From NCBI RefSeq assembly GCF_934203365.1, contig NZ_CAKPZA010000012.1: DNA of 64,000 nucleotides; one strand, written 5' to 3'. This DNA is from an uncultured Phascolarctobacterium sp. (GTDB lineage Bacteria; Bacillota; Negativicutes; Acidaminococcales; Acidaminococcaceae). Both the position numbers and the translations under genes were made by a program. The first letter of the stretch is position 1. Each line of letters begins with the position of its first letter. Below, piece by piece: positions 1-30,600 of this stretch. A model generated the notes under the pieces. The model saw only the letters and a program-made list of their open reading frames with translations. It made no database searches and had not been told where the DNA came from.

Positions 1-2406
1 TGCTTCGTCAAAAGCAGATTGGGGTAAAGTGTATCTACAATATAGTTGCATACCACTTCCAGCTTTTCACGGCTTTCAGCAGGTGCCTGCTGCACCAAGG
101 GCAGCTGCAGAGCGTCGGCAACAGCTTCCTTCACAAAGTCACGCTGCTGCAGGCAGCGAATCAGCTCGCGGCACTGGTCAGCAATGCGGTCAATCAGTAT
201 ACCGTAGGTAATATTCAGCGGTTCATATATCAGGCTGCTGTTTTCCAGCAGATAGTAATAATCAAAGCCATATAACGCTGCAATCGCCTGTGTCAGGCTG
301 GGAATATTGCCGTTATCCAGACGCAGCAGCAGCCACAGATAATCCTCCAGCTGCTGTCCTTCCGGCGGCTGGCCCATAATATGCAGGCCTGTGTGTACCT
401 CCATATTCTTCAAATCCGTAATGTAATTATGCAGGCTCATCACGTATTCGTCGAAGGGTTTCTCCTCGTCATAAGCAACTTCGTCCTGCAGGTTGGCCTC
501 GGCAACCTTCGCCAGCACCAGCTCCTGCAAGCGCGGCAGATTATCAGGCTGCGTGCTGCTGAAGTGTACGTATTCGTCCATGAGCTTTTCCAGCTCCTCC
601 AGCTCGTCATACACTCCAGCCTGCGTCTGCGGTGCCGGCAAATGCTCAATCAGGCAGGCAGCGCCGCGGCGTTTTGCCTGAATACCTTCGCCCGTAATGG
701 TGATGTTATAGGGATAAATATTCGGCAAATCTCCCAATGACAAGTCAGGGTAACAGCTGCAGTCCAGGCCGGCATTCTTGCCCGGCAGCCACTCCAGGCT
801 GCCATGCGTGCCGATATGGGCAACAGCGTCTGCCTGCCACACATCGCGTACCCAACGGTAGAAGGCCAGATATTGATGTGTCGGTGCAACGTAAGGATCG
901 TGGTAAATCTTTTCCGGATCCTCGCCAAAACCACGCGGCGGCTGTACCGTTACGAAAACATTACCGTTCATCGTTCCCGGCACCAGGATATCGCCGTCAT
1001 ATTCCATAACAGAACCCGGCGCTTCGCCCCAGTCCTTCACCAGCTGCTCCTGCACCTTTTTATCCATCAATGCAAAGAATTCTTTATATTCTGCTCCCGT
1101 CAGCTTGTTGGCTGCGTCAATCTGCTTTTCCGTCAGCATGCTGCGGTCGTTGGTAGCATTGGCAGTCAGCAATTTGATAAATTCCTTCGTATCCTCCGGA
1201 ATCCAATCAACCTTATAGCCACGCTCGCGCATAGCAGCCAGCACGCGGCGGATGCTTTCGATTGTATCAAGGCCGATAGCACTGCCGATATTGGAATTAC
1301 GCGGCGGATAGTTATGGAAAATAATGGCGATTTTTTTCTCGCTGTTGGCCTTGTGGCGCAGCATCGCCCACTTCTTCGCCTTGGAAGCCATGCGCTTTAC
1401 ACGTTCTGTATTCGGCAGATATCGTACATCGCCGTTTTCCAACACCTTTTTATGTGCTACAGGCACACCATGAATAATACCATCAAACTCCGGCAGGGAA
1501 ACGCTGATAGAAACCTCCATCGCGTTCATGCCTTCGAAGCTGTTCTTCCATTCTTCGAAGGGCGCAATTGTTGTATAGGCAGCCAAAACCGGCACGTTAA
1601 ACTTTTTCAGATAATCAAGGTTAATCGAACCGCCGGTAGTCATGGAAAACTTCATCACATTTAGCAGCACATCGATTGCAGGCACACCGTCTGCCGTGCA
1701 GAAAAAGCTGTTGAAAACCTGCGTCAAACTGGGCATGCCCATTTCTTCAAGCGGCATGCCGTTGCTGAAAACGCAGACAGCGTTGACGCCCTGTGCTTCC
1801 AGTTCCTCTATCATCGCAGTCTGGTAGGTCAAATCGCCCCACACCCATTCATCACGGTAAAAAAGAATGCCTGCTGTCGGACGGCCGCTGACGCAAAAAT
1901 CACGCTGATATTCCGCCAAATCGGTATATACCTTTTTCGCCCGCGGATGATAAATACCACACCAGTGAATCGGGTTAGGCTCATCGACTGTAATAGCCTC
2001 ACCTTGCAGCAGCTGCTGCAGATATAACCACAGATTGCTATAGTTGATTTCGCCGCCGAACATGCAATATTTTTTGATAACTGCAAGCTGCTCCGGTGTC
2101 AGTCCCTGCGCCAGCTCGCCTTCCTTGCTGCCGGCAGCATCAATATAAAAGGGCAGGCGCAGCTGTTTCAGCAGGCTGACGCAGCGCTGCAGAAACGGTG
2201 TATCCAGGCCTGTACCCATCCATTTCATAATAACCAGCTTAGAGCCGGCAAGCTCCTTGTGCCATTTATCATCCCAAACCGTCGCATCGGTAATCCAACG
2301 GCAGGCGCAGGCATTATCCAGCTTGCCTTCCTGCTGCAGCTTTTCCATAGTCTGCTGCATCATACCCATGCGGCGAATAACATTCGTCAAGAAAATAACC
2401 TTCATA
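1..2406 (-). CDS. CobN/Mg-chelatase-H family chelatase, N-terminal ~800 aa, continues beyond the left window edge
   Basis: Manual minus-strand translation from ATG at 2406-2404 gives an uninterrupted frame to position 1 (MKVIFLTNVIRRMG...HIGTHGSLEWLPGKNAGL...). The HGSLEWLPGK box is typical of CobN/ChlH chelatases. The ORF track omits it because it runs off the edge. The plus-strand ORFs 804..1664 and 1642..1827 are antisense shadows. Confidence 0.75.
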
Positions 2407-2420
2407 ATTTCTACCTCATC

Positions 2421-3458
2421 TTAAAAGAACTGCTTCTGCATTCTGCGCAGCAGATACAGGAAATACGGCGTGCCCAGGAATGCTGTCATAATACCTACAC
2501 GCACCTCTGCCGGTGGCATAATAATGCGTCCCAGCGAATCGCAGAATACCAAAAAGGCTGCGCCGCCAAGTGCGCTGGCAGGCAAAAGCACGCGATGGTC
2601 AGGACCGATAAGCATACGCATCATATGCGGAATAACCAAGCCGACAAAGCCGATGTTGCCACTGACGCAAACGGAGGTAGCAGTAGTCATAGCAGCTACG
2701 AAAAGCAAACCCATGCGGAAAGCGGTAACAGGCATACCAACGGCTTTAGCTTCTGTTTCGCCCAGCACCAGAATGTTCAGGTGACGCGCCAGCATGCACA
2801 TAATCACAATACCGCACAGCACAGGTCCGACTGCCAGATATACATGCTCCCAGCGACGGTAATCAAGACCGCCGACCATCCAGAACAGATATTGCTGCAG
2901 CTTCTGCTCGTTCATAAAGGTGAGCAGACCGGAGGTAATGGCACCCAAAAGCATACCTACGGCAACGCCTGCCAAAAGCAACGTCATAACAGGTATTTTG
3001 CCGTTACGCATCGCCAAAAATACTGTCAGGCACACAGCACAGATACTGCCGCAAAAAGCAAAAGCCGGCATAGCAAACATGCTGCCGGAGGCTGCACCCA
3101 AAGCAATAGACAGCACGGCGCCGGTAGCAGCACCGGAGGAGATACCGATAAGACCGGGATCTGCCAGCGGGTTGCTGAAGATGCCCTGCATTACAGCGCC
3201 GGAAATACCCAGCGCTGCACCTACAAGCACACCTACCAGCATACGCGGCAGGCGGATATACCAGATAACAGCAAGCTGCTCTCTGGTGTAATCAGCCTCG
3301 GTAAAGCCTGGCAGATTCAGCTGAGTGCCGATAACCGCCAACGCTTTGCCTACCGGCACATCTATCTGACCGAAGGTCAGAGATACACAGGCAATAACAA
3401 CTAAGAGAACTGCTAAAAAAATAATAGCCAATGGACTCCGTTCACGTTTAATAATCAT
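2421..3458 (-). CDS. FecCD/BtuC-family ABC transporter permease (iron-siderophore/cobalamin type)
   Basis: 345 aa. About 9 predicted TM helices. The motif GISSGAATGAV and overall pattern are typical of FecCD permeases. Confidence 0.85.
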   Translation of the reverse strand: MIIKRERSPLAIIFLAVLLVVIACVSLTFGQIDVPVGKALAVIGTQLNLPGFTEADYTREQLAVIWYIRLPRMLVGVLVGAALGISGAVMQGIFSNPLADPGLIGISSGAATGAVLSIALGAASGSMFAMPAFAFCGSICAVCLTVFLAMRNGKIPVMTLLLAGVAVGMLLGAITSGLLTFMNEQKLQQYLFWMVGGLDYRRWEHVYLAVGPVLCGIVIMCMLARHLNILVLGETEAKAVGMPVTAFRMGLLFVAAMTTATSVCVSGNIGFVGLVIPHMMRMLIGPDHRVLLPASALGGAAFLVFCDSLGRIIMPPAEVRVGIMTAFLGTPYFLYLLRRMQKQFF

Positions 3459-3474
3459 CTACAAACACACTTCC

Positions 3475-4446
3475 TCAAAAAATTTCCGGATATACAGCAT
3501 GCGCGATGTTTTCAATAGCATCGACAATATGCTGGCTGGCAACATAGCGGTATTTATCCGAAACAAACTTAATCTGCTTGTTGCGTACAGCCTTGACATC
3601 GCGATAAGCAGGGTCATTCATTACGGCATAAGCATAACCCTGCACATCCTGTTTATTGTTGTAATTCCAGGTCGGCAACATAAAAATATCCGGATTTATG
3701 CGTACCACCTGTTCCTTGCTGATAGCAGGCATACCATGCTCGCTCTTGTTTTCATCGGCAACAATGGCCGCGCCGTTGATAACATGCGCCATCGTCAGCA
3801 TACTGTCTAGCAAATCGCCCCTACGCCCCATGGCAGAAGTAAAATTAAAGGCTACGGCAACTCGCCTTTGGCTTGACGGAATCTGGCGCAAGCGTTTTTG
3901 CAGCTGCTGCAGGTGCGTGTCCATCTTCTGCACCATCAGCTCCCCCTGCTGCTTTTCGCCCACCGCTGCAGCTATGCCGCGGATTTTGTCGCACATCTCC
4001 TTGTAATTATGCGGGCTGCGCGCTATATATACAGGCACGCCCAAGCCCTCCAGACTGCGCACCAAATCACTGGAGGTGGCTGTTGAAGCAACGACAAGGT
4101 CAGGCTGCAATGCATATACGGCTTCCGTATTCTCCGGCACCTTGCGTCCCACGGTATAAGCCTGCTCCTTGGTAATAAAGCTTATTTCGCTGTCGCCCGC
4201 CCAACGGCTGTAGGCCATAATGCGTTTGATATCAACCAAATCGGTAAGAATTTCGTCCGTACCATAGGTAAGCGAAACAATCCGCTGCGGCTTATGCTCA
4301 AAGCGCAGCGTCCGTCCGACATCATCCGTAACGCTGTAGGCTGCATCCACCGCCGACGGAGCAGGAACATCCGCAGCCTGCTGCTTACTGCATCCTGCAG
4401 TAAAAACCAAAAGCAACAGGCTGATAATCATCAATAGCTTTTTCAT
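3475..4446 (-). CDS. Periplasmic binding protein (BtuF/FhuD-like class III SBP), lipoprotein
   Basis: Signal peptide plus lipobox LVFTAGCS. Size ~320 aa. Peripla_BP_2-like sequence. Adjacent to the FecCD permease. Confidence 0.8.
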   Translation of the reverse strand: MKKLLMIISLLLLVFTAGCSKQQAADVPAPSAVDAAYSVTDDVGRTLRFEHKPQRIVSLTYGTDEILTDLVDIKRIMAYSRWAGDSEISFITKEQAYTVGRKVPENTEAVYALQPDLVVASTATSSDLVRSLEGLGVPVYIARSPHNYKEMCDKIRGIAAAVGEKQQGELMVQKMDTHLQQLQKRLRQIPSSQRRVAVAFNFTSAMGRRGDLLDSMLTMAHVINGAAIVADENKSEHGMPAISKEQVVRINPDIFMLPTWNYNNKQDVQGYAYAVMNDPAYRDVKAVRNKQIKFVSDKYRYVASQHIVDAIENIAHAVYPEIF

Positions 4447-4453
4447 AGACCAC

Positions 4454-5749
4454 CTACTCTACTTTATTCTTTTTCCTACGGATAAAGCAATTCCACAGTC
4501 GCTCCAGCATGTAAGCACTGCCTTGCAGGCCTACCATCGGCTGCTTGGTAATAAACACCTCATCATTCGTAGGATAGCAGATATTGCAGGCCTCAAAGCT
4601 GCACTGCTTTCTGCGGTAAAGAACCGAGCTTTCGCTGCTGCTGCTCAGCAGCAGTACATTGTCACAGCTTTTAAAGTATTCGCTGATGGCAGCATCATCC
4701 ACACCAACAGTATAAATCGCCTCAGCCGTATCACAGGCAGGCGCATCCTTGAGCTGCTGTTGGCAGATGACCGTCAGCCTGCCGATGTCAGTCCATTCCG
4801 TGCGCAGCGTCTGTGCGAGGCACAGCGCCTGTGTAGCAGGTGCACTGACGAGCACATTGTCAAACCACATGCTGCCCCAAAGCGCAATCGCTTCATTATT
4901 ACGGCTCAGCAGATAATTATCCTGTGCCTGAGCTTCTGCCGTTACCTTATCCATAGAGGGAGCAGGCAACTGTGCATTTATCTGCTGCAGCCAGCGCAGC
5001 GTTCCCTGCACACCGTAAGGCAGTCCGGCAAAAATATACGGCGTACCGTATTTTTTCTGCAGATATTCAGCCAGCGGCAAGCCCAGCTCCGCATTGGTAA
5101 CAATGTTCAGCGAAGCCTCCGGCAAGCGCTGCAGCTCCTCCAGCGTGCATTCGCAGCCGGGAGTGCAAAGCACCTCATAGCCTGCCAGCTGCAGCAATCT
5201 TTTTATTTCCTGCGTATCGGCAGCACCCTGCAGATAAAATTCCGATTGTCCTAAAACATTTACTGCCAAGGGCTTTGCCGTCGCAGTCTGCGGCAACAGC
5301 TGCGCAAACAGCTTCTTGGCAGCCTTGGCGTAGCCTTCGGCAAAGCCGCCGACCATACCGCCGCTGTCCAATGTAACTACGGGGAACGGCAGCTGCAGCT
5401 TGCGCGCCATGCCCGCAAGGTCATCACCGATTAAGCTCAGCGAGCAGCTGCTTTCCAAAAGCAGTACCGACGGCTTGTGACCATCTTCCAGCATACGCTG
5501 CAGCTCCTGCGTTACATATTCCTCGGAGCCGTAAATAACAGCGTTATTATCAGGCTGAGAGCCGTAAAAGCGCGTATACATATCGGGGCGCGCCTTTTCC
5601 AGATGTCTAAGAGCATAAAAATAACACCACAACGGTCCGTTAATCAAAACCTCACTCTTGTCAATAGCAGCAAAAAAGGCACCTGCACCTGTCAGCGCAC
5701 AGGTATCCACTCGCTCGCAGATATTGCCCCAGCCTTGTTTTTCAGACAT
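4454..5749 (-). CDS. Nitrogenase component-1-type oxidoreductase subunit (NifK/NifD-like paralog)
   Basis: 431 aa with Cys-containing nitrogenase-component-1 family pattern. 8-nt overlap with the upstream NifD-like gene suggests translational coupling. Confidence 0.7.
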   Translation of the reverse strand: MSEKQGWGNICERVDTCALTGAGAFFAAIDKSEVLINGPLWCYFYALRHLEKARPDMYTRFYGSQPDNNAVIYGSEEYVTQELQRMLEDGHKPSVLLLESSCSLSLIGDDLAGMARKLQLPFPVVTLDSGGMVGGFAEGYAKAAKKLFAQLLPQTATAKPLAVNVLGQSEFYLQGAADTQEIKRLLQLAGYEVLCTPGCECTLEELQRLPEASLNIVTNAELGLPLAEYLQKKYGTPYIFAGLPYGVQGTLRWLQQINAQLPAPSMDKVTAEAQAQDNYLLSRNNEAIALWGSMWFDNVLVSAPATQALCLAQTLRTEWTDIGRLTVICQQQLKDAPACDTAEAIYTVGVDDAAISEYFKSCDNVLLLSSSSESSVLYRRKQCSFEACNICYPTNDEVFITKQPMVGLQGSAYMLERLWNCFIRRKKNKVE

Positions 5750-7061
5750 AGCGCACGCCTCCCTTCAGCCTGCTGCACAGACTCTGATAAATTCCCTGCA
5801 TCATCTTGACCTCACCGGCAACGGCAACCTGCGGCAACATCGGCAGGAAAATCTGGCGTGCTTCCTTGTTCTGCAGCTCGTGCGTCGTCAGCACAATATC
5901 AGCCTGCGCCACCAGCTTTTCGCCCTCCGCCGTAGTATATACAGGTACATCGCTGTTTTCCTGCACAACCTTCAGCATCGCTTTACGCTCATCACCGTCA
6001 TAGGAATCCAGCAGGATAATGCCTGTAAGATTCAAGCGCAAAAGTCTGATGGTCTGCAGGATATTGCCCGGATGAAAATATCTCAGGATACGGCCGATGC
6101 ACAGCACTGTTTTCTTGCCTTCCGTTACCGGCAGAAAATGCTGCAGCTGCTCATCTAAGCGCTGCTGCTCCAGCTTCAGCACCTGCTGTGCCAGCGCCTC
6201 ACGCCCCAGCATACGTCCTATGCTGATAATCCAGTCCTGCGTTTCCTGCCAACCGACAGGATAAATATCGGCCAGATAATGTGTGCCGTATTTTTCCTGC
6301 AGCTGCTCTGCAACCTTACGCAAACCGATGTGCGTCTGCCCACGGCCGCCAAGCACAACAGCATATTCGGCAGCCGCCACCTTTTCCAGCTCATCCATAG
6401 CCATATATCCGGGGAACTGACCGATGACCTCTACGCCAAATTCCTGCAGAATACGCGTAACCTCTTTTGCATAATGGCCCCACGGGCCACCGTTATCACC
6501 TAAAAGCAGCACGCTGTCCTTTTGCTTGGCGCAAGGCTTCACAAAGCGTTCCAACAGCTTCTGCGTAATTTCAAAATAACCATCATAATATTCTGCACCT
6601 AAAAAGCCACAGCATTCAACAGTCAGAATAGGAACATTATATTCCTCCTCCACCTCGCGTGCCACGGATTCCACATCGTCACCGATAACACCGGCCACGC
6701 AGGAATTGGCAATCATCAGGCATTTGGGTTTATATGTTTCAATAGCAAAGCGCAGGCATTTTTCCAAACGTGCCACTCCGCCGAAAATTGCATCCTTTTC
6801 CTGCATCTGGCTGCTGAGCAACGGTACGGAGCCCCACTGCTCGCGCTCATTCTCGGAAAGAGTGCGGTATTGGGAATTGATATCCATTGTACGTGCTACA
6901 TGAGCGCAGGCACGCGGGCTGTGAAAAACTACTACAGCGCCGTCCATATAGGCAACAGCGCGCCACACGCCCGGCATACTGCAGCTGCAGCTTTTGCGTG
7001 CACTGTAAAAACGTCTGGTTTTAATTGCCATATTCGGCCACCAGCTTTTCAAGCTCTTCAA
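5742..7061 (-). CDS. Nitrogenase component-1-type oxidoreductase subunit (NifD/NifE-like paralog)
   Basis: 439 aa. The '[12 protein letters not shown]' region resembles NifD/E/BchN family cluster-binding segments. The true start may be the internal Met (MAIKTRRF, ~7031), which overlaps the nifH-like stop. Confidence 0.7.
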
Positions 7062-7827
7062 AGCTCATCGGCGTAGGAATAGCCATGTTTTCATTATGCC
7101 AGATATCATGCGCCAGCTTGCGGTAAACCTCAGCCTGAGCGCTTTCCGGTGCATATTGCAGCACAGTCTGGCGATTGTTTTCTGCCTTGTTGACGATAAC
7201 GTCACGCGGAATAAAGGCAATCAGCTGTGTGTGCAGGCGTTTAGCGAACTCCTGCAGCAGCTGCTGCTCGTTAGGTGTATTACGGCCGTTACCGATGATA
7301 CCTCCAAGTCGCACACCGCCGCGCATAGCAAAACGCTTAACACCCTTAGCGATGTTGTTGGCAGCATAAAGGCTCATCAGCTCACCGGAAGAAACAATAT
7401 ATATATCAGTTGCGTAGCCCTCGCGAATAGGCACGGCGAAACCGCCGCAGACTACGTCACCCAGAACGTCGTACATAATAAGGTCCTCGTCCGTCAACAC
7501 CTCCAGCGAACGCAGCTTTTCCAAAGCCACGATAATACCGCGGCCCGCACAGCCTACGCCCGGCTCAGGACCGCCGGCCTCTACGCATTTGATGCCGTTA
7601 TAGCCTGTATGGACAATATCCTCTGCCGCAACCTCATCATTATCGCGCACCATATCCAGCACAGTCTGACTGCAGATGCGTCCCAGCAAAAGTCTGGTAG
7701 AATCATTTTTCGGATCGCAGCCGATCTGGCAAACCTTAAGACCTTCCTCGCTGAATGCAGCCGACAGATTTGATGTTGTTGTGGACTTGCCGATACCGCC
7801 CTTACCATAAATCGCAATTTTTTTCAT
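7021..7827 (-). CDS. NifH/BchL/CfbC-family ATPase, Fe-protein-like reductase component
   Basis: N-terminal P-loop [15 protein letters not shown]. Both [4Fe-4S] ligand cysteines are present (CAGRG, VCGGF). 268 aa. Confidence 0.85.
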
Positions 7828-7930
7828 TAGACATTGACCTCCATCCTATACTCAAAAACTTCTATTCAACTAGCAAGGAAAATATGATATAATTTACTAG
7901 ATAAAAAGAAGTGATATTACTCCTTTTAAT

Positions 7931-7959
7931 ATTAAACTATATACTAGTATTATAGTCAA
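7931..7959 (-). promoter_or_regulatory. Putative sigma-70 promoter for the nif-like operon with an embedded perfect 10-bp palindrome ATACTAGTAT (candidate MerR-type operator)
   Basis: On the minus strand: TTGACT (7959-7954), 17-nt spacer, TTTAAT (7936-7931). The palindrome 7941-7950 lies inside the spacer. The site is in the divergent region shared with the MerR-family gene. Confidence 0.4.
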
Positions 7960-7976
7960 GCTTATGAGGAACAATT

Positions 7977-8837
7977 ATGATTAATAAAGACAAGCGAAAG
8001 TACTTTACTGCCGGCGAGCTGGCAGCAATTTTTAATATATCCAAGCAGTCATTGCTCTACTACGATAAGGTTAACCTACTTTCACCCGATTTTGTCAGTG
8101 AAAACGGTTACCGCAATTATTCCATCCAACAGTTTTTGGATTTGGAGATAATAGTTAACCTGCGTGCGCTTGATATCAGCATCGCCAATATCAAAAAATA
8201 TCTGGATGACCGCAGCAAGGAGCATTTCCTGCAGTTGCTGCAGGAAAAAACAGCGGAATGTCAGGCCATCATCCGCAGCAATCAGGAAATCTGCGACACC
8301 ATCGAACGCATCAAGGAGGATATGCACGTCAAGGAGCTTAATCCCTGCCGTCACCTGACGCTCAGCTGGCAAAATGACCGTCTGCTACGCCTCACGCCGC
8401 TTGCGGAAAGTGACGACGGTAAAAGCCGTATTACTAAGTTTGCGCGTCACGGCCAAAGACGCGCACATCACAAGGGAGCTCTGCCTAATCATGCCGGTTG
8501 GGTTTTAGATCAGGAGAGCTTTTTTAAGACGCATGATTTTCTGCATTCACAGGCATATTTTTCCTGCGTCACCAGCGCTACCAAGCACAGGCAGTCCATA
8601 AAAATGACACTGCCCGCAGGTCTTTATCTGGAAATCATTTTTTCCGGTACCTTCTGCGAAAACGCTGCCAAGCTGTCCAAACGTATAGAACACTTTCTGC
8701 AGGCCAATGATTTGGAGCCTGTCGGCAATATTTATATCCTTCCTTTGGAAAATCATTGGTTCTCCTGCGACTGCGAGCAGTACGTCAACAAAATCTTTCT
8801 GAAGGTTGAAGATAAGGATACAACTTCTCTAACGTAA
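7977..8837 (+). CDS. MerR-family transcriptional regulator with C-terminal effector-binding (GyrI-like) domain
   Basis: N-terminal HTH pattern YFTAGELAAIFNISKQSLLYYDKVNLL is typical of MerR. 286 aa. Divergent from the nifH-like operon. Confidence 0.8.
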   Translation: MINKDKRKYFTAGELAAIFNISKQSLLYYDKVNLLSPDFVSENGYRNYSIQQFLDLEIIVNLRALDISIANIKKYLDDRSKEHFLQLLQEKTAECQAIIRSNQEICDTIERIKEDMHVKELNPCRHLTLSWQNDRLLRLTPLAESDDGKSRITKFARHGQRRAHHKGALPNHAGWVLDQESFFKTHDFLHSQAYFSCVTSATKHRQSIKMTLPAGLYLEIIFSGTFCENAAKLSKRIEHFLQANDLEPVGNIYILPLENHWFSCDCEQYVNKIFLKVEDKDTTSLT

Positions 8838-9016: not shown

Positions 9017-9778
9017 TCACAGCTGCAGCTGACTCAAAAAGTTTAAGCTGTTCAACGGCTTATCCGTCTGAAAGAAGATAAACTTGAAGAGAATTTTTTC
9101 CAGCTCCATGAGCGCACCGCCACGCACCTTAAAGGGCGCCGGCTGCTCGTAATCAAGCTGCGCCAGCCACTGCCACAGCTCGCGTGTTTCCGCACTGCAC
9201 GGTTCTAGCCCGTCACCGTTATAACTGCTTTTGCAGCTGCTGCAGATAAGTCCGCCCTGCAGCGGACTGAACCATGCACCCTCCTGCGCCGTCACAGCCT
9301 CACCGCAATGCACGCAATGCGTAAGCTGCGGTGCAAAACCAGTAGCCGCCAGCAATTTTATAGCATAGGACAAAACTACCAGACGCGGATTGCGCTGCAT
9401 CAGCGCCGCCAAGGCAGCGCCCAGCATTTCATAAAGCTCCGGCTGCGGCACTCTGTCCTCCGTCAGCACGGCAGTCAGCTCCGACGCCACCGCCGCATAA
9501 GCCATCTGCTGCATATCCATCGACTTGGGCATCTGCAAAAGCTCACAGCTGCGCAACTTGTCTATCTTCTGCCCCTGCTGAACCTCAATATGCAGATTGG
9601 CAAAGGGCTGCAGCAATCTGCCATGTATATTTTTTTCATAGCGGGCACCATAGGCGATAAAGCGCAACTTGCCATGCTCCTTCGTAAAGCAGACCGCATA
9701 TTTATCAGCCGTCTGCCAGTTTTTTACATGCAAAACAAGGGCATCATCTGCCAAAAGCTCCCTTTGCGACTCACTCAT
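9017..9778 (-). CDS. recO: DNA repair protein RecO
   Basis: 253 aa. C-terminal zinc-binding CVHCG...CSSC motif. Canonical position next to era. Confidence 0.8.
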   Translation of the reverse strand: MSESQRELLADDALVLHVKNWQTADKYAVCFTKEHGKLRFIAYGARYEKNIHGRLLQPFANLHIEVQQGQKIDKLRSCELLQMPKSMDMQQMAYAAVASELTAVLTEDRVPQPELYEMLGAALAALMQRNPRLVVLSYAIKLLAATGFAPQLTHCVHCGEAVTAQEGAWFSPLQGGLICSSCKSSYNGDGLEPCSAETRELWQWLAQLDYEQPAPFKVRGGALMELEKILFKFIFFQTDKPLNSLNFLSQLQL

Positions 9779-10619
9779 CCTGCTGTTCTTCCTTCTGCTT
9801 TTGCTCCTGCGGCAGCTTCGTAGCCAGCACGCGAACTACACGGAAGCCCTCCGTGCGCAACACCTTAAAACTATAGCCGGAAATTTCCACAACATCGCCA
9901 ATCTCAGGCTTGCGCCCCAGCAAACCGAATACATAACCGCCGATGGTATCCTCCTCCGGATCATCAAATACAATCGGCAGCTGCTCTGCCACATCGTCCA
10001 GCAGCACCATACCGTCAAATTCAATACTGCCATCGGGAAGCTGCAATACATCCGGCGGCTCCTGCGCTTCATGCTCGTCCTGAATATCACCGACAAATTC
10101 CTCCACGAGGTCCTCCATCGTAATCAGGCCTGCAGTACCACCGTACTCATCTGCTACAAGCACCATCTGCACATGACGCTGCTGCATCAGGCGCAAGGCC
10201 TTCGGCACCGGCATAGCCTCAGGAATAACAACAATCGGACGCATCAGGCGGCGCAGGTCAAAGGTAGTCTGCCCCGGCTTAATCTTCAGCAGGTCGCGCA
10301 CATGCAGCGTTCCCACAACCTGATCCTTGTCCTCCATGCAGAGCGGATAGCGTGTATGATGACTGCTGCGCACAACAGCCATATTTTCTGCCAGCGTATC
10401 GTCCAAAAACAGGCATACCATATCCTGTCTTGGTACCATGACCTCGCGCGCCACACGGTCGGCAAAGTCAAACACATTGCCGATCATGCTGCCCTCGACA
10501 TGGTCAATCTGGCCATGTCGCTCACTGGCGCTCACCAGCCGGCGCAGTTCGTCCTCACTGCTGGCGCTGCCCTCCTTGTGCCAGGTACCGGTTTTCAGGT
10601 AATACCAGGCAAGCGGCAA
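9771..10619 (-). CDS. CorC/CNNM-type CBS-pair + CorC_HlyC domain protein (soluble, no DUF21 membrane domain)
   Basis: 282 aa. CBS pair followed by the transporter-associated domain. Acidic C-terminus. Confidence 0.7.
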   Translation of the reverse strand: MPLAWYYLKTGTWHKEGSASSEDELRRLVSASERHGQIDHVEGSMIGNVFDFADRVAREVMVPRQDMVCLFLDDTLAENMAVVRSSHHTRYPLCMEDKDQVVGTLHVRDLLKIKPGQTTFDLRRLMRPIVVIPEAMPVPKALRLMQQRHVQMVLVADEYGGTAGLITMEDLVEEFVGDIQDEHEAQEPPDVLQLPDGSIEFDGMVLLDDVAEQLPIVFDDPEEDTIGGYVFGLLGRKPEIGDVVEISGYSFKVLRTEGFRVVRVLATKLPQEQKQKEEQQDE

Positions 10620-17811: not shown

Positions 17812-17935
17812 ATTCTACGTCCCCCTTAGCTTTGGGTAGCTTATTTATAAAATAATCATTTTTATATTGTTCAACATGAAAGTGCTATTTTCCTGCTTAT
17901 TGATGAATTTTTTTCTTCATCTTCCTGCAGGACAC

Positions 17936-18268
17936 TTATTTGCCCATATAAAGGCGACGGATAATTCCCAGATTCTGGAAAATACGCATACCGAAAATCA
18001 GTACCGCTACCAGATACAAATCGATACCGATCAGATTACCTGCATAGCACAAAAAGGCAGCTAAAATACCGTTGATAAAGAATCCGGAAATGAAAACCTG
18101 AGTATCATAATTGCCTTCAAGCGAAGCACGTACACCGCCAAGCACTGCATCCATACCGGCCATAACGGCTACGGCAAGCAGGCGTGCGTATTCAGGCGGC
18201 ACTCTGAAAGGACAGTAAACACCGAGTATAAGGCCAAGCACAAGGCCGGCAAATGCAAATCCAATCAT
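17936..18268 (-). CDS. sbp: Small basic protein Sbp / DUF1290 membrane protein
   Basis: 110 aa, hydrophobic. In Bacillus this gene sits in the divIB–ftsZ region; the order is from memory, not recomputed. Confidence 0.55.
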   Translation of the reverse strand: MIGFAFAGLVLGLILGVYCPFRVPPEYARLLAVAVMAGMDAVLGGVRASLEGNYDTQVFISGFFINGILAAFLCYAGNLIGIDLYLVAVLIFGMRIFQNLGIIRRLYMGK

Positions 18269-18963
18269 TTCGCAGCCTCCTTGCTTTCCACTATCTTAGC
18301 GTATTCAAAGCTGCGCGGTGCCTTCAGCGCCGGAATATGCAGCTTTTCAACAGTCTTGATTTTTACCTGAATGCCCCAGAACTCAAAGGTTTCTACAACA
18401 CCGCCACGCAGACGCAGGGCACTGCTCAGAGTTTTAGGAGCGCCTATAGCCTTGATTACATAAGGCGGAGCGCTGCGGACATTGTTTACCGAAATAGTAG
18501 GTCCGGCACAACGAATCTCGCTCATAGCCACAATACGCTGATCGTTGACAGAAATTGCTTCCGCACCGGCAGCGCGCAGCTCGTTGAGCACACGCAGCAA
18601 ATCTTCATCATGAATAATGTACAAATTAGGATTTTCACCGGACTTTTTGGCAATATTGCTGTCATCCAGCAAAATCTCAATGCCTTCGCCCTCTACGTCA
18701 GTCGTGCCTGCCATCAGCTTCATACGGTCATCAGCAGGATCCTTGCCAGCACCTGCACGCAAGGTTTCCAGCTCCGTCAACAGCTGCTTGTTCTCGGCTT
18801 CCATAATCTTCAGGCGTTCCGACAAATCCTCTACGCGGTCCATACGTACATTGCGCTGAAGCTCTGTAGTTTTATACTGTACCGAAAGCATAAATCCCAA
18901 CACCATGAATACCACGGCAATCAACAGCTTGCCCTTTAAATCCATAGTAAAAATTTCTTTCAT
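18265..18963 (-). CDS. DUF881 (YlxW/YlxX-like) division-associated membrane protein
   Basis: N-terminal TM, coiled coil, DUF881-like C-terminal domain. 4-nt overlap with sbp. Confidence 0.6.
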   Translation of the reverse strand: MKEIFTMDLKGKLLIAVVFMVLGFMLSVQYKTTELQRNVRMDRVEDLSERLKIMEAENKQLLTELETLRAGAGKDPADDRMKLMAGTTDVEGEGIEILLDDSNIAKKSGENPNLYIIHDEDLLRVLNELRAAGAEAISVNDQRIVAMSEIRCAGPTISVNNVRSAPPYVIKAIGAPKTLSSALRLRGGVVETFEFWGIQVKIKTVEKLHIPALKAPRSFEYAKIVESKEAAK

Positions 18964-19026
18964 TATCTCACCCTCACTGTGACATCAGCTGCAATGACTT
19001 TGCAGCTGTAACAAGTTAACAGCAAT

Positions 19027-19803
19027 TTATTTTGGCAAAAGCTTGATATATGGCTTACCGAAGGTCAAATCAATATATTCAGCCTTAATATTTTTATCTT
19101 TAATCTCGTTGAACACAGTCATAAACACAGAAGCCTTCTGTGATACCTCCTGTACCCTGCCCAAACGCACCGGAAAGCTGCCGCTCAGCTGCAGCTTGAC
19201 ATCCTGCTTATCATCAACGGCAATTTCACCGATACGCTGCAGTGCTTCCGGCGTCAGCTGCTGCAAAAATTGCAGAATCTGCAGCACACCCGTATTGGCA
19301 ACCTTATCTCCCAGATAAAGATTACCGCACTTTATTCCGGCCAGCACAGGGGCCTTGGCATCCGGAATAGTAGTCGTCACACTAAGAACAACACCGTTAT
19401 AATCCACCTTCAGATAGCTGTGATAGGAATTGGCAACATAAAGCGCCGGCTGCCGTTCCTCTACGCTCACCTGCAAGGTTGCCGGAAAGCGGTAAGCCAC
19501 CTCTGCATTCTTAAAGCGGACATCATGCAGCAAAGCATCACGCAGACGGCCGGAGCTGGCATTGAAAAGATTCAACGGTCCCTGCCCGCAGCCTGCAAGC
19601 GAGATAACCTCTGCCTCCGTCAGCTGACTGCTTCCGTGAATGCTGACATTGCCAAAGGCAAACGCAGGATTATGCACATAGCGCCAGGCATATGTACATG
19701 TTACAGCAAGTACAGCCGTGGATACCAGTAGGCGCACCATGTGCCAGAATTTCCGGCGTCTGCGTCTGCGCAGTTGTTCGCGTATAGTCTGCGATGAATC
19801 CAT
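19027..19803 (-). CDS. ftsQ: Cell division protein FtsQ/DivIB
   Basis: Basic N-terminus, single TM, POTRA-like domain. Located after ddl. Confidence 0.7.
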   Translation of the reverse strand: MDSSQTIREQLRRRRRRKFWHMVRLLVSTAVLAVTCTYAWRYVHNPAFAFGNVSIHGSSQLTEAEVISLAGCGQGPLNLFNASSGRLRDALLHDVRFKNAEVAYRFPATLQVSVEERQPALYVANSYHSYLKVDYNGVVLSVTTTIPDAKAPVLAGIKCGNLYLGDKVANTGVLQILQFLQQLTPEALQRIGEIAVDDKQDVKLQLSGSFPVRLGRVQEVSQKASVFMTVFNEIKDKNIKAEYIDLTFGKPYIKLLPK

Positions 19804-19836
19804 GCTGCACCTCCTTTGGCTCCTTGTAAAACGTTT

Positions 19837-20784
19837 TTATTTAGCGCTCAGTAAAATTTTCTCGCACAGCTCCGGGAAGCTGATGCCCACAGCAGCAGCA
19901 GCCTTCGGAACCAGGCTGGTTGCCGTCATGCCGGGAACAGTATTTGCTTCCAGTACATAAGCAACGCCATCCTCATCACCCAGCATAGCATCTACACGCG
20001 CTACACCGGAAAGTCCCAGCAGCTTGTAGGTTTCTACGGCAATTTTTTGGATATAAGCAGTAGTTTTCTCATCAAACGGTGCCGGGCAGTGGTAATCCGT
20101 AGCACCCTTGGTGTATTTGGAATGGAAGTCGTAGGCGCCGGAATGCGGTGCAATCCAGATAACCGGCAACGGTTTGGGCTCGCCGTTCTCTTCCATAATA
20201 GAAATTGTCAGCTCCTTGCCCTTGATGCACTTTTCTGCCAACACATTTTCGGAATACTTGAAGGCTTCCTCCAGTGCAGGCACAACCTCTTGTGCAGTCT
20301 TGGGAATTACCACGCCGATGCTGGAGCCCTGAGTTGCTGCCTTAATAACTACGGGCAGACCGAACTCGGAAATAATTTTTTCTGCCAACGCCTGCAAATC
20401 ACCTGCATCACGCTTGTTGATAATCATGCAAGGTGCGGTAGGAATGCCTGCAGACTGCAGATAACGCTTTGTAGCGGATTTATCCATAGAAACAGCGCTT
20501 GCCAGTACGCCGCAGCCGGTATAAGGAATACCTGCTGCCTCCAGAATACTCTGCAAACGGCCATCCTCACCGTACATACCATGAACGGCGTTAAATACTA
20601 CCCTAGCGTTCATATCACGCAGCTCGTTAATCAGATTAGACGGATTCAGCTCAACTTCCTTGGCATTATAGCCCTTTTCGCGCAGTGCGTTGGCAATAGC
20701 GCCGCCGGTAACACGCGAAATCTCGGCCTCAGAGGAAGGCCCGCCTAAAACAACAGCAACAACATCCTGCTTATTAATCTGCAT
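19837..20784 (-). CDS. ddl: D-alanine--D-alanine ligase
   Basis: ATP-grasp with Ddl motifs. 315 aa. Confidence 0.9.
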   Translation of the reverse strand: MQINKQDVVAVVLGGPSSEAEISRVTGGAIANALREKGYNAKEVELNPSNLINELRDMNARVVFNAVHGMYGEDGRLQSILEAAGIPYTGCGVLASAVSMDKSATKRYLQSAGIPTAPCMIINKRDAGDLQALAEKIISEFGLPVVIKAATQGSSIGVVIPKTAQEVVPALEEAFKYSENVLAEKCIKGKELTISIMEENGEPKPLPVIWIAPHSGAYDFHSKYTKGATDYHCPAPFDEKTTAYIQKIAVETYKLLGLSGVARVDAMLGDEDGVAYVLEANTVPGMTATSLVPKAAAAVGISFPELCEKILLSAK

Positions 20785-22168
20785 TTCTTTCCAACTCCCT
20801 AACTAATTCTTCTCCAATTTTAAACACATCACCGGCACCGATGGTCATCACCAGATCGCCGGGACGTACAACGCGCTCCAGGTATTCCTCAGCCTTGGTC
20901 AGCTTGCCGATATACAGCACCTCCTGACCGGTCGCTGCTTTGATACCCTCTGCCAAATGCATGCTGCTCACGCCGGGAATTGCTTCCTCGCTGGCTGCAT
21001 AAATGTCAGTCAGAATCAGCTCATCGCAATCCTTAAAGCATTCGCAGAACTCAGAGAACAGCAGCTTGGTACGGGTGTAACGATGCGGCTGGAATACACA
21101 CAACAGACGCTCAGGCTTTGTCTGTCTGGCAGCCTTCAGCGTTACGCCGATTTCTGTCGGATGATGCGCATAATCATCAACAACCCAGACACCGTTTACC
21201 TTACCCTTGGTTTCAAAACGACGTTTGGCACCGCCGAACTTTTTCAGGGATGCAAGAATTTTGTCGGTAGCGATACCCATCTCATGTGCAGCAGCAAACG
21301 CGCCCATAGAATTCAGCACATTATGTCTGCCGGGAACAATCAGATGAACCTCCGTCACAAATTCTCCCTTGTAGTACAGCTTATAGCTGGTGCCGTCAAC
21401 ACCGTAGGAAATGTCACGGGCAATGTAGTCAGCACCCTCGCCTTCTACGCCGTAGGTAATTACCTCTTTATCGGTTTCGGCAGCCAGACGGCGCACCTTG
21501 GCATTATCAAAGCAAAGGACTGCCTTGCCGCCTTCCTTGATGTTGCCTACAAACTGTTTAAAAGCCTGATATATATTTTCTTCTGTACCGTAATGGTCCA
21601 GATGATCATCTTCAATATTAGTTACTACAGCAAGATACGGATACAGCTTGAGGAAGGAGCCGTCGCTCTCATCCGCCTCCGCTACCACAAAACGGCCTGC
21701 ACCGTTGCGCGCATTACCGCCAAGGCTGCTTACCTCGCCACCGATGATAACAGTCGGGTCAATACCGCTTTCTGCCGCAATGCAGGAAATCATCGCACTG
21801 GTAGTAGTTTTGCCGTGAGCGCCTGCGACAGCTACGCCGTCGGCAGCATTCATTACTGCAGCCAGCACATCGCTGCGGTGCAGCACGGGAATACCGCGCT
21901 TTCTGGCCTCCATCAGCTCCGGATTGTTGGGATGAATCGCTGTAGAAATAACTACAGCCTCGGCATCCTCCACCTGGCTGGCAGCATGGCCCATATAAAC
22001 CATAGCGCCTTCTTCCGCCAGATGTGCCGACATATGACCGGCATTTAAATCGGAACCGCTTACATCATAGCCGCGCTTAATCAATACATAAGCAATTGCG
22101 CTCATGCCAGCGCCGCCGATACCGATAAAATGTATATTATGCAGGTTTGCTAATTTGTTTTCAGCCAC
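20774..22168 (-). CDS. murC: UDP-N-acetylmuramate--L-alanine ligase
   Basis: Mur ligase GTNGKTT-type P-loop (GAHGKTTT). 464 aa. Confidence 0.9.
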   Translation of the reverse strand: MAENKLANLHNIHFIGIGGAGMSAIAYVLIKRGYDVSGSDLNAGHMSAHLAEEGAMVYMGHAASQVEDAEAVVISTAIHPNNPELMEARKRGIPVLHRSDVLAAVMNAADGVAVAGAHGKTTTSAMISCIAAESGIDPTVIIGGEVSSLGGNARNGAGRFVVAEADESDGSFLKLYPYLAVVTNIEDDHLDHYGTEENIYQAFKQFVGNIKEGGKAVLCFDNAKVRRLAAETDKEVITYGVEGEGADYIARDISYGVDGTSYKLYYKGEFVTEVHLIVPGRHNVLNSMGAFAAAHEMGIATDKILASLKKFGGAKRRFETKGKVNGVWVVDDYAHHPTEIGVTLKAARQTKPERLLCVFQPHRYTRTKLLFSEFCECFKDCDELILTDIYAASEEAIPGVSSMHLAEGIKAATGQEVLYIGKLTKAEEYLERVVRPGDLVMTIGAGDVFKIGEELVRELERNAD

Positions 22169-22181
22169 TCGAGGCCCTCCC

Positions 22182-23285
22182 TTATTGTTTAGTCAAGGCC
22201 ACAGCCTCTTTGGCTATAACCTCTGCAGCCTGCGGTCTGCCAAGCTTTTGGGCCGCCGCATGCATCTGCTGCAATTCCTCTTCATGTACTAATAAATGCT
22301 CGATAAACTCCAAAACGGTGTCACCCGTCAGGTCCTTATCAAGAATAACCTTGGCAGCACCTTGAGCCTCTACCGCTCTGGCATTAAACTCCTGGTGATT
22401 TGCCGTAGCATACGGATATGGTACCAGAAGCGACGGCACTCCCTTAGCCATCAGCTCTGCCAAACCGATTGCACCGGCACGGAATACTGCCAAATCTGCC
22501 GCAGCCAACGCTACCGGCATATTATGCAGATAAGGCTTGATGATAATATTATCTGCCACACCGCCGCGCTTTTTAATTTCTGCCATATAGGCTTCATAAT
22601 TCACATCACCGGTCGCATGCAGCACCTGTACCTCGGCTCTGCCGGAAAGCGCCAGCTCTGCTTCGAGCATCGCGTTGTTGATAGTGCGCGCACCACGGCT
22701 GCCGCCGGAAACGAGAATCGTTTTCTTCGCCGGGTCCAGCCCCAGCTCCTTAACAGCTTCCTCACGCGTATGCTGCAGAATTTCACTGCGGATAGGATTG
22801 CCGGTATATTCCAGCTCTGCCTTGCCGTGAAAATATTTGCCGCCCTCTTTATAACCTAAAAATACTTTGCGCACATAACGTGACAAAATTTTATTGGTTA
22901 CACCGGGCATCGCGTTCTGCTCCTGAATGCAGCAGGGAATTCCCTTTAACGCTGCCATGAAAACAATCGGCCCGCAGACATAACCGCCGGTACCGATTAC
23001 CAGGTCCGGTTTTTCGTTGCTGATAATCTTGTAGGCATCATATAAGCCGGCAAAAAGCTTTGCTGCACTGCGCAGGGTATCCAGGCTCAGGCTGCGCTTA
23101 AAGCCTGCTACTTCAATGAACTGCAGCTTGTAGCCGTAGCGGGGAATGATATCCTTTTCCAAGCCCTGCTGTGTGCCTACGAAGCTGATTTCCGCCTCAG
23201 GCTGCAGTTTTTTTATCTGGTCCGCAATGGTCAGGGCCGGATAAATGTGTCCGCCCGTACCGCCGCCGGAAAGAATTACCTTCAC
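22182..23285 (-). CDS. murG: UDP-GlcNAc:undecaprenyl-PP-MurNAc-pentapeptide GlcNAc transferase
   Basis: GT28 family, GGTGGH motif. Confidence 0.9.
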   Translation of the reverse strand: MKVILSGGGTGGHIYPALTIADQIKKLQPEAEISFVGTQQGLEKDIIPRYGYKLQFIEVAGFKRSLSLDTLRSAAKLFAGLYDAYKIISNEKPDLVIGTGGYVCGPIVFMAALKGIPCCIQEQNAMPGVTNKILSRYVRKVFLGYKEGGKYFHGKAELEYTGNPIRSEILQHTREEAVKELGLDPAKKTILVSGGSRGARTINNAMLEAELALSGRAEVQVLHATGDVNYEAYMAEIKKRGGVADNIIIKPYLHNMPVALAAADLAVFRAGAIGLAELMAKGVPSLLVPYPYATANHQEFNARAVEAQGAAKVILDKDLTGDTVLEFIEHLLVHEEELQQMHAAAQKLGRPQAAEVIAKEAVALTKQ

Positions 23286-24682: not shown

Positions 24683-24743
24683 ACATAGGCTATAGCCATT
24701 TCACCGCAAAAATTACGATAAAATGGTTATAGCCGAAGATTTT

Positions 24744-25706: not shown

Positions 25707-25731
25707 CTACTAAAATCTCACTCTCTTAAGT

Positions 25732-28577: not shown

Positions 28578-28669
28578 TTATTAACCCCCCTGTTTTACGT
28601 TCCGCCCCTCAAGGAGCAAAGCCGTAAATTACTTCTAGTTTAATTATAGTATAGAATTTAAATTGAAAC

Positions 28670-28687
28670 GGCAGCCAAAAGGCTGCC
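28670..28687 (-). terminator. GC-rich hairpin (ggcagcc-aaaa-ggctgcc) downstream of ftsL and upstream of murE
   Basis: 7-bp GC stem followed on the minus strand by GUUUCAAUUU. Suggests a transcriptional break inside the dcw cluster. Confidence 0.35.
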
Positions 28688-28737
28688 TCCCAAAAACCCA
28701 TTCAAATTATATCACAATATAAACTGAATGGCTATGT

Positions 28738-29148: not shown

Positions 29149-29183
29149 CCTTCATCAAAACATCAAAATTTATCTCTTATCTG

Positions 29184-30128: not shown

Positions 30129-30130
30129 TC

Positions 30131-30562: not shown

Positions 30563-30565
30563 TTT

Positions 30566-30600
30566 GTCGCCCCCTTTTTACCCACATTGCACCACTTTTC
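30566..30600 (-). promoter_or_regulatory. Candidate MraZ operator: three direct GTGGN-type repeats at ~10-bp spacing immediately upstream of mraZ
   Basis: Minus-strand reading: GTGGT-gcaat-GTGGG-taaaa-AGGGGG, ending 4 nt before the mraZ ATG. Confidence 0.45.

Follow-up and report, generated by a model that had tools for sequence, protein, structure and literature searches.

A nitrogenase-like operon of Phascolarctobacterium succinatutens with a putative role in cobamide homeostasis

Organization of the nfl locus

We analyzed a 64,000-nt stretch of DNA (hereafter the window; contig NZ_CAKPZA010000012.1) from an uncultured Phascolarctobacterium sp. Its first 7827 positions carry, entirely on the minus strand, an operon encoding a three-component nitrogenase-like system, here designated NflHDK, together with components of an ATP-binding cassette (ABC) importer and the large chelatase subunit CobN (Table 1). 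Sequence identity of 98–99% to strains YIT 12067 and CAG:287 identified the organism as Phascolarctobacterium succinatutens. At 98% identity, 5773 sequences from public assemblies fall into the same NflD cluster, which marks the gene as a common one in the gut.

Each gene assignment within the operon was backed by Pfam and NCBIfam matches. These include the continuation of the same strand into genes for a lipoprotein binding protein, a FecCD permease and CobN, which had been proposed in an initial annotation made from the sequence alone. The nflH and nflD genes overlap by 11 nt and nflD and nflK by 8 nt, in line with the overlapping stop and start codons noted there; the nflK, binding protein, permease and cobN genes are separated by gaps of 7–16 nt. 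The ATG start codon of nflD, which gives a protein of 429 amino acids (aa), agrees with all homologues, and a start at the TTG codon at position 7061 would probably make the protein too long. The HGSLEWLPGK motif of CobN lies at residues 534–543 (window 806–777), and the remainder of the gene runs off the edge of the window.

The missing part of the operon was read from contig L001, which carries an identical permease gene. There, cobN encodes a full-length protein of 1239 aa, and its stop codon is overlapped by a gene for a 341-aa radical S-adenosylmethionine (SAM) protein of the SPASM type. This is followed by genes encoding a CN_hydrolase (nitrilase-superfamily amidase), a TonB-dependent receptor and a second binding protein. 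Partners of the ChlI/ChlD type and an ABC ATPase, which the initial annotation had proposed to seek by extension to the left, were not found within 10 kb of the operon in this strain; the extension yielded the radical SAM gene, and ChlI/ChlD genes are present in congeners. Neither the window part nor 10 kb on either side of the operon in L001 contains nifB, nifE/N or nifV, which extends the same observation made earlier for the 8 kb around the genes.

In two P. succinatutens-like genomes (L008 and L012, ~6230) a gene encoding a CbiZ homologue is located ~2 kb past merR, where the window (9017–10619) has recO and a corC-type gene, so the flank of the operon differs between strains.

Table 1. 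Predicted genes and regulatory features of the nfl locus, with positions in the window.
Feature	Position	Strand	Description
nflH	7827..7021	-	NifH-like ATPase/[4Fe-4S] electron donor, 268 aa; Pfam Fer4_NifH, 367 bits
nflD	7031..5742	-	NifD/E-like catalytic subunit, 429 aa; Pfam Oxidored_nitro, 176 bits
nflK	5749..4454	-	Second NifD/K/E-like subunit, 431 aa; Pfam Oxidored_nitro, 159 bits
Lipoprotein substrate-binding protein gene	4446..3475	-	323 aa; Peripla_BP_2, 78 bits; lipobox LVFTAGC; type II (BtuF/FhuD/IsdE class) ABC importer
FecCD/BtuC-type ABC permease gene	3458..2421	-	345 aa; FecCD, 324 bits
cobN	2405..1	-	Class I chelatase large subunit; N-terminal 801 of 1239 aa, the rest cut by the window edge; CobN-Mg_chel, 667 bits
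merR-family gene	7977..8837	+	Divergent from nflH; MerR_1, 42 bits; weak Cass2 match
nfl promoter/operator (predicted)	7959..7929	-	TTGACT 7959-7954; 19-nt spacer with palindrome ATACTAGTAT 7950-7941; TAATAT 7934-7929

Classification of the NflHDK proteins

The P-loop (GKGGIGKS, residue 8), switch I (DPKNDS, residue 38), switch II and the two [4Fe-4S] cysteines C93 (CAGRG) and C127 (VCGGF) were all distinguished in NflH, which places it, by its motifs, in the NifH/BchL/CfbC family and bears out the earlier description of a NifH-like ATPase with its P-loop and both cysteines. Against the NCBIfam models the protein scored 394.7 bits with nifH (cut-off 394.35), 391.6 bits with CfbC (cut-off 402) and 227 bits with BchL (cut-off 345). 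Judged by these features, NflH is a typical group-IV-style Fe protein.

Residues C17, C42 and C111 of NflD align with C66, C91 and C158 of MarD (which correspond to the C62/C88/C154 triad of NifD), and C17, C42 and C102 of NflK with the cysteine triad of NifE; thus all six P-cluster positions (NifD C62/C88/C154 and NifK C70/C95/C153) are occupied by cysteine. The position of MarD C270, equivalent to NifD C275, is taken by T233 in NflD, and this column is variable across the family. The NflD stretch opposite the region of NifD His442 and MarD His429 did not align. NifD C275 and MarD C270 anchor the catalytic cluster in nitrogenase and in methylthio-alkane reductase (MAR), respectively (PMC13474568).

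A true, if unusual, nitrogenase would be in keeping with the six P-cluster cysteines and with NflH just reaching the nifH cut-off. However, NflD and NflK are ~60 residues shorter than NifD, and the nitrogenase models gave scores far below their cut-offs: 102.8 bits for nifD (cut-off 653.55), 120.8 for N2-ase-Ialpha (486), 47.3 for nifK (427) and 114 for nifE (505). Because there is no Cys275 equivalent, no nifB, nifE/N or nifV within 10 kb and no large-subunit score near a cut-off, NflHDK is not regarded as a nitrogenase. This possibility is refuted for practical purposes, and the initial annotation was right to set nitrogen fixation aside.

Two other known activities were also considered. A bacterial enzyme resembling CfbCD that makes an F430-like nickel (or other) hydroporphinoid cofactor would explain why NflH falls only slightly under the CfbC cut-off, and the substrate of CfbCD is an a,c-diamide, as is that of CobN (PMC13474568). 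Such an activity is nevertheless very improbable. NflD scored 41.5 bits with the CfbD model (TIGR03282, methanogenesis marker 13; cut-off 268.4), two different large subunits are encoded here as opposed to the single type of CfbD, no CfbA/B/E neighbours were found, the hosts are not known for methyl-coenzyme M reductase biology, and the riboswitch control described below points to vitamin B12. Both large subunits are likewise far under every BchN, BchB, BchY and BchZ cut-off in NCBIfam, as they are under that of CfbD (BchB 65–97 bits against 490, BchN 28–49 against 420, BchZ 18–47 against 529).

The closest solved relative of NflD is MarD of MAR (E 1.6e-27, 24–27% identity). An AlphaFold model of NflD (predicted local distance difference test score of 81) gave MarD, NifD and NifE as the best fold matches, with template modelling (TM) scores of 0.62–0.68, the highest for MarD, at 16–24% identity; as a prediction, this adds only a generic NifD/E/MarD-like fold (TM 0.6–0.7). 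A reductase of sulfur compounds like MarHDK or IsrHDK, cleaving C–S bonds, would fit this closeness in sequence and fold, but we regard it as highly unlikely: the identity to MarD is low, its ligand C270 is replaced in a variable column, no NifB/MarB-like maturase was found (the radical SAM protein being of the SPASM type), and sulfur-metabolism genes are absent from the neighbourhood.

A scan of 1.84 billion representatives delimited an NflD family proper of ~25 clusters (34–47% identity, 250–430 bits), below which there is a gap in scores and then relatives of similar length at 23–33% identity. The MarD-like clusters P0197 and P0218 share 20–23% identity with the window NflD and group in a clade apart from it in a neighbour-joining tree, which is identity-based, was built without curated group references and shows the separation from the MarD clusters. 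By sequence, NflHDK therefore constitutes a clade of its own, so far found only in Negativicutes, and is placed outside the nitrogenase, CfbCD, MarHDK and DPOR/COR (dark-operative protochlorophyllide and chlorophyllide oxidoreductase) families. Model scores, alignment and tree agree on its position outside the CfbCD and MarHDK clades, either of which had been named in advance as a possible known function.

Distribution and gene neighbourhood of nfl

In a scan with one genome per species, the nfl family was found in Phascolarctobacterium, other Acidaminococcaceae, Succiniclasticum, Selenomonas, Schwartzia, Mitsuokella, Megamonas, Centipeda, Sporomusa, Anaerospora and Pelosinus, all of them Negativicutes. 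Neighbouring genes were mapped by tblastn and Pfam within 10 kb of the nflD relative at 83 loci; since many contigs are short, the resulting counts are lower bounds. CobN was the most frequent partner (at least 54 of the 83 loci), followed by the permease (at least 51), the SPASM radical SAM protein (at least 41) and a MerR orthologue encoded divergently to nflH (at least 40). ChlI was found at no fewer than 29 loci, the TonB-dependent receptor at 28 or more, CbiZ at 27 or more and ChlD at 22 or more. At least 21 loci each encode CN_hydrolase and an ABC ATPase, at least 20 an AP_endonuc_2-type TIM barrel protein, at least six CbiK and at least four CobA.

The order of these genes varies. In Phascolarctobacterium, merR is divergent from nflH-nflD-nflK, which are followed by genes for the substrate-binding protein (SBP), permease, CobN, radical SAM protein, ChlI and ChlD; in congeners L028, L033, L040, L041 and L045 the radical SAM gene is immediately followed by chlI and chlD. 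In Selenomonas the order is radical SAM-ChlI-ChlD-(CbiZ)-CobN-(SBP)-NflH-NflD-NflK-SBP-ATPase-permease-TonB receptor, with ChlI/ChlD adjoining CobN, and in Pelosinus it is CbiK-NflD-NflK-CbiZ-CobA. A 33%-identical outgroup (L087) has merR divergent from a single run encoding CN_hydrolase-NflH-NflD-NflK-ChlI-ChlD-radical SAM-CbiZ, and CbiZ and the amidase are encoded within the same unbroken gene runs in L087, L058, L066 and L080. Genes of the cbiL/H/F/D/J/E/T/C type were never found beside the module in the loci examined. Despite the reordering, the gene set is retained between Phascolarctobacterium and Selenomonas at ~40% identity. Linkage that outlasts such rearrangement and divergence argues for a shared pathway, and the tie to a tetrapyrrole chelatase and a BtuF/FecCD-type importer, recognized at first from the single locus, is thereby strengthened.

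Several loci carry additional genes. One Phascolarctobacterium genome (L047, 9–6058) has, beside the main set, a second one encoding CobN, an NflD/NflK-like pair and a 271-aa radical SAM protein; this pair is 26% identical to the main pair and lacks an nflH of its own. In Sporomusa ovata (L060, 12660–16484) and an Acidaminococcaceae genome (L038, 16591–19600), nflHDK is followed in the same run by genes for a polyferredoxin, an HGD-D protein (2-hydroxyacyl-CoA dehydratase/double-cubane type) and a BcrAD/BadFG ATPase, which amounts to a second ATP-driven low-potential reductase in the same riboswitch-controlled operon. A CbiK homologue with a clear signal peptide (MKKGFKKYVAAAAAVASLFS) is encoded in Schwartzia (L072, 14234–15238) between the nfl operon and the TonB-dependent receptor gene and is, by this signal, probably periplasmic; the CbiK of S. 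ovata, a cytoplasmic protein, carries a tail rich in His and Cys. Phascolarctobacterium-type nfl contigs (67–98% identity; L013, L015–L018 and L039) also occur in 'cleanbin' assemblies titled Bacteroides sp., Escherichia coli, Segatella copri, Bacteroidaceae, Ruminococcus and Duodenibacillus, and are most likely mis-binned.

Regulation of the nfl operons

Cobalamin riboswitches control genes of cobamide synthesis, of cobamide or cobalt uptake and of B12-independent isozymes, and as a rule repress them when cobamide is plentiful. Searches with the Rfam model RF00174 (gathering score 31.5; observed matches of 85–122 bits) revealed such a riboswitch ahead of the nfl operon in at least six genera: Sporomusa, Anaerospora, Pelosinus, Schwartzia, Selenomonas and, represented by one species, Phascolarctobacterium. 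In three loci it is situated on the same strand directly ahead of nflH: in S. ovata (L060, 8858–9041, with nflH starting at 9202), in Anaerospora hongkongensis (L061, 8895–9076) and in Phascolarctobacterium sp. UMGS706 (L037, 8905–9079), whose locus has no merR. The riboswitch of S. rhizae precedes genes for a tetratricopeptide repeat (TPR) protein, NflHDK, permease and ATPase, with cobA ~200 nt further on. It lies upstream of CbiK-NflHDK in Schwartzia and of CbiK-NflD-NflK-CbiZ-CobA in Pelosinus, and in Selenomonas it heads an operon of ~20 kb. Because CobN, ChlI/ChlD, CbiZ, CbiK and CobA are encoded in the same transcription units, the option of a B12-independent isozyme can be set aside, which places NflHDK in corrinoid metabolism.

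The P. succinatutens operon is preceded by a divergent merR-family gene. Its product has an N-terminal MerR helix-turn-helix and a C-terminal GyrI-like effector domain, and its closest solved relative is BmrR, aligned over its full length (residues 6–270, E 1e-9); it therefore belongs to the MerR subgroup that senses bulky organic ligands via a GyrI-like domain, and not metal ions. The merR-nflH spacer is 150 nt long. A TTGAC-N19-TAxAAT layout with a CTATA..TATAG dyad was found in 14 Phascolarctobacterium loci, and MerR-family operators as a rule have such a dyad at the centre of an overlong spacer of 19 nt. An inverted-repeat program reported nothing in the spacer, because the arms are only 5 nt long and adjacent; the palindrome was read by eye and is backed by its conservation. 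The dedicated MerR-type regulator suggested by the initial annotation is thus credible. From their arrangement, the riboswitch and a ligand-sensing MerR activator appear to substitute for each other in controlling this operon within a single genus.

Most Phascolarctobacterium loci share a further conserved motif, ATCTAGTAAATTATATCATA (window 7902–7883, minus strand), which lies in the 5′ leader of nflH, downstream of the MerR-type promoter, and may serve as another operator or as an RNA element. In Schwartzia, a ZMP/ZTP riboswitch (57–61 bits), an unexpected neighbour within a B12-regulated stretch, follows directly after nflK and precedes a gene for a major facilitator superfamily (MFS) transporter (L072, 12656–12736; L076, 12646–12726).

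CobN, the radical SAM protein and the importer

Full-length CobN from contig L001 scored 936.7 bits with the TIGR02257 cobN model, above the equivalog cut-off of 822.05, and 822.1 bits with that of BchH, slightly under the cut-off of 829. Its closest solved relative is CobN of Mycobacterium tuberculosis (5e-215, 720 bits), whereas HmuS gave 2.9e-119 and 402 bits. No signal peptide or membrane anchor was found at its N-terminus, and the protein is thus predicted to be cytoplasmic. The best NCBIfam match of the permease is BtuC (298.6 bits, cut-off 461), and the BtuF model gave 30.7 bits (cut-off 234). The binding proteins match IsdE weakly. The TonB-dependent receptor scored 203 bits with the B12-receptor model and 193 bits with the hemin-receptor model. 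A role of the radical SAM protein as a cluster maturase of the NifB/MarB type was considered and rejected, since in PDB and NCBIfam comparisons it is a minimal SPASM enzyme without a NifB match.

HmuS-like heme dechelation was our initial suspicion. Under this reading, which corresponds to iron harvesting from heme or porphyrin of the HmuS/BtuS type, heme would be imported, CobN would take its iron and NflHDK would reduce the heme or porphyrin. CobN-family dechelatases do occur in gut anaerobes, the two receptor scores are close to each other, and IsdE is the weak match of the binding proteins. It was dropped, and is now considered very unlikely, since CobN is cytoplasmic by prediction and nearer to true CobN than to HmuS, cobalamin riboswitches stand over operons that include CbiZ, CbiK and CobA genes, and no Fur-type or heme-related genes were seen at the loci.

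Proposed function of the nfl module

Taken with moderate confidence, the operon of the window is the P. succinatutens copy of a Negativicutes-specific module for cobamide (vitamin B12) homeostasis. We infer the corrinoid substrate, the enzyme-by-enzyme steps and the direction of metal transfer from the sequences. In the proposed scheme, a BtuB-like outer-membrane receptor and the BtuF/BtuC-type ABC importer would take up exogenous corrinoid. Cytoplasmic NflH would spend ATP to push low-potential electrons into NflDK via an interface Fe-S cluster held by the six cysteines, and NflDK, which has no site for an iron-molybdenum cofactor (FeMo-co) or L-cluster, would reduce the corrinoid, either at the cobalt centre or at ring double bonds. 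CobN, with ChlI/ChlD motors presumed to be encoded elsewhere in this strain, may then move the metal, while the SPASM radical SAM enzyme, the nitrilase-family amidase and, in relatives, CbiZ would trim side chains and the nucleotide loop. Expression would be switched on by the BmrR-type MerR activator in P. succinatutens and controlled by cobalamin riboswitches in other genera. Cobalt in a corrin would require a far stronger reductant than the metal removed by HmuS, given its Co(II)/Co(I) potentials, and a NifH-type ATPase supplies such electrons. The conserved H384 and the GxGQTH region (228–234) would be candidates for contacting a corrin in the cavity that takes the place of the FeMo-co site.

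Within this framework, the processing of imported corrinoids, possibly including recovery of cobalt, is favoured over a role in de novo synthesis, because the importer genes lie inside the operon and because CbiZ and the amidase would be superfluous in de novo synthesis. To cut the nucleotide loop or aminopropanol arm off corrinoids, in salvage and remodelling, is the only activity known for CbiZ, according to literature cited in PMC8620254. P. succinatutens needs B12 for methylmalonyl-CoA mutase in the conversion of succinate to propionate and is a predicted B12 maker (PMC7568257).

The de novo alternative is possible, though we consider it rather less than probable. It holds that NflHDK, CobN-ChlID and the radical SAM protein perform alternative or auxiliary steps of anaerobic cobamide synthesis, for example by inserting cobalt with high affinity at the expense of ATP and then reducing a cobalt-precorrin or cobyrinate intermediate in a further ATP-driven reaction, with the importer, CbiZ and amidase as merely co-regulated salvage neighbours. 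Riboswitch logic suits biosynthetic genes equally, CobN exceeds the cobaltochelatase equivalog cut-off, the hosts are predicted de novo producers, CbiK and CobA adjoin nfl genes, and the known tetrapyrrole-directed nitrogenase-like enzymes (DPOR, COR and CfbCD) are all biosynthetic (PMC13474568). Several features do not fit, however: the binding protein and permease genes of P. succinatutens stand between nflK and cobN, CbiZ and amidase genes share the unbroken runs mentioned above, and in the loci examined the module is never accompanied by the cbiL/H/F/D/J/E/T/C-type genes. Nor is the established anaerobic pathway known to contain a vacant step calling for a reductant of this strength.

A more specific variant of corrinoid processing, which we put forward tentatively and hold to be unlikely as it stands, is the mining of cobalt, in which imported, unusable cobamide analogues would be disassembled and their cobalt re-used in the cell's own B12 synthesis. 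CbiZ would strip the nucleotide loop and the nitrilase-family amidase the side-chain amides, NflHDK would reduce the stripped corrinoid with ATP-driven electrons of very low potential, and CobN-ChlID would then run backwards, as HmuS does on heme, to extract cobalt from the inert corrin. HmuS, a member of the CobN family, is a reduction-dependent dechelatase that removes the metal after this metal has been reduced (PMC12583661). The metal insertion stated in the initial annotation was an assumption, given that this precedent and the co-occurrence of CbiZ and amidase leave removal equally open. Its broader description of the substrate as a tetrapyrrole-like or related metallo-cofactor holds for the link to a tetrapyrrole chelatase, but left the nature of the compound open and missed the connection with B12; the riboswitches, CbiZ, CbiK and CobA of the relatives point to cobamides.

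Some observations weigh against the assignment to cobamide homeostasis. No Rfam riboswitch was found in the 64-kb window, in L001 or in P. succinatutens contigs, so the B12 link of the window locus rests on orthology and synteny. Genes related to B12 generally cluster, and some of the neighbours may be co-regulated without belonging to the same pathway. Judged by its equivalog-level score, CobN would be no worse a fit for ordinary insertion of cobalt in the forward direction than for its removal. Among the binding proteins, permease and receptor, none attains an NCBIfam equivalog cut-off; the importer has the features of the type II class, within which specificity for heme, siderophore or B12 is indistinguishable at the level of sequence. 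The radical SAM protein has its best matches, in both PDB and NCBIfam, among peptide-modifying SPASM enzymes (CteB, anSME and PapB-like) and could therefore act on a protein. Finally, Succiniclasticum-like Acidaminococcaceae (L054–L057) carry nflHDK without any of the partners within 10 kb.

Comparison with known systems

Like Nfl, the CfbCD, DPOR (BchLNB) and COR (BchXYZ) enzymes combine a NifH-type ATPase donor with a NifD/K-type component devoid of FeMo-co ligands, and their genes are embedded in a tetrapyrrole pathway next to a chelatase. By analogy, they are likely to provide a model for the working of Nfl. They differ in having a 3Cys+Asp or symmetric 4Cys [4Fe-4S] site in place of the six P-cluster cysteines of Nfl, and in belonging to chlorophyll or F430 regulons, whereas the Nfl operon includes an importer and is part of a cobalamin regulon. 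MarHDK (Group IV-C; PDB 9FMG, 9D9U), the closest system by solved structure and sequence, shares with Nfl a heterotetramer-type D/K pair and the six P-cluster cysteines, but Nfl has no C270 ligand for an L-like cluster, no MarB/NifB and no sulfur context, and falls into a separate clade.

Group VI NflHDK of Elusimicrobia has radical SAM neighbours, and synthesis of a tetrapyrrole cofactor was proposed for it from context (10.1101/765248; PMC13474568). Its NifH is described as a sibling to that of group V, with ~40% identity to NifH, and its D/K subunits as having at most four of the six P-cluster cysteines. Set against this description, the present family appears to differ in the nifH score at the cut-off, the complete set of six cysteines and its occurrence in Negativicutes. 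Links to CobN, CbiZ and riboswitches are seen at nfl loci and have not been reported for Group VI.

Operon-2 of Dehalobacter restrictus is a riboswitch-controlled unit encoding BtuFCD, CbiZ, CobN and a Mg-chelatase subunit, located among corrinoid biosynthesis and uptake clusters, and has no Nfl genes (PMC4285132). Operons of this type in anaerobic Firmicutes share the chelatase, importer and CbiZ with the nfl loci, but lack the nitrogenase-like and SPASM radical SAM genes. HmuS/BtuS of Bacteroidota resembles the nfl loci in pairing a CobN-family protein with TonB-dependent uptake of metallo-tetrapyrroles in gut anaerobes. HmuS is a periplasmic, membrane-anchored, NADH-dependent and ATP-independent enzyme acting on heme (PMC12583661), in contrast to the CobN described here, which is predicted to be cytoplasmic and belongs to a B12 regulon.

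Other regions of the window

Positions ~17900–30600 contain an ordinary division/cell-wall (dcw) cluster composed of mraZ, rsmH, murE, murF, mraY, murD, murG, murC, ddl, ftsQ and ftsZ, followed by nrdR. The region ~36000–62000 has a GC content of 29–41%, compared with ~50% elsewhere. Contig L089, which shares one protein with it, carries surface-polysaccharide genes (LicD, choline kinase/cytidylyltransferase and heptose-type sugar nucleotide genes) along with those for an IS110 transposase, a RES toxin and a ThsA_Macro protein. The region is probably a horizontally acquired, strain-variable surface-polysaccharide locus.

Significance

That nitrogenase-like genes of Firmicutes can lie beside those of ABC transporters was already pointed out in 2012, with no function proposed (PMC3464626). 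A review from 2026 lists functions for groups IV-A, IV-B, IV-C, IV-F and V only and regards the rest as a major open problem, to which genomic context has contributed little except associations with genes of sulfur metabolism and tetrapyrroles (PMC13474568). Our literature searches found no paper linking nitrogenase-like genes with CobN, cobalamin riboswitches, corrinoids or heme; the study of Rodionov et al. 2003, which reportedly defined B12-regulated CobN and BtuS, was outside their scope. We know of no nitrogenase-like enzyme that processes B12-type molecules. What is described here is probably a nitrogenase-like tetrapyrrole reductase in a new clade, with a new regulon (B12), new partners and a substrate class that is new as well.

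The placement of the riboswitches and the B12-enzyme neighbours provide a specific, testable lead that ties one whole clade to cobamide metabolism. The hosts, such as Phascolarctobacterium, Selenomonas and Megamonas, are bacteria that abound in gut, mouth and rumen and rely on B12 to convert succinate to propionate, and cultivable representatives for studying the Nfl system are available in P. succinatutens YIT 12067, Sporomusa ovata and Selenomonas species. Two puzzles could be addressed: why strict anaerobes that use CbiK retain a B12-regulated CobN-ChlID beside corrinoid importers, and whether there is any biological route for corrinoid disassembly or cobalt recycling. If the cobalt-mining variant were true, tetrapyrroles handled by nitrogenase-like enzymes would gain a fourth class, and the nfl module would represent the first corrinoid disassembly pathway, a biological route of vitamin B12 degradation.

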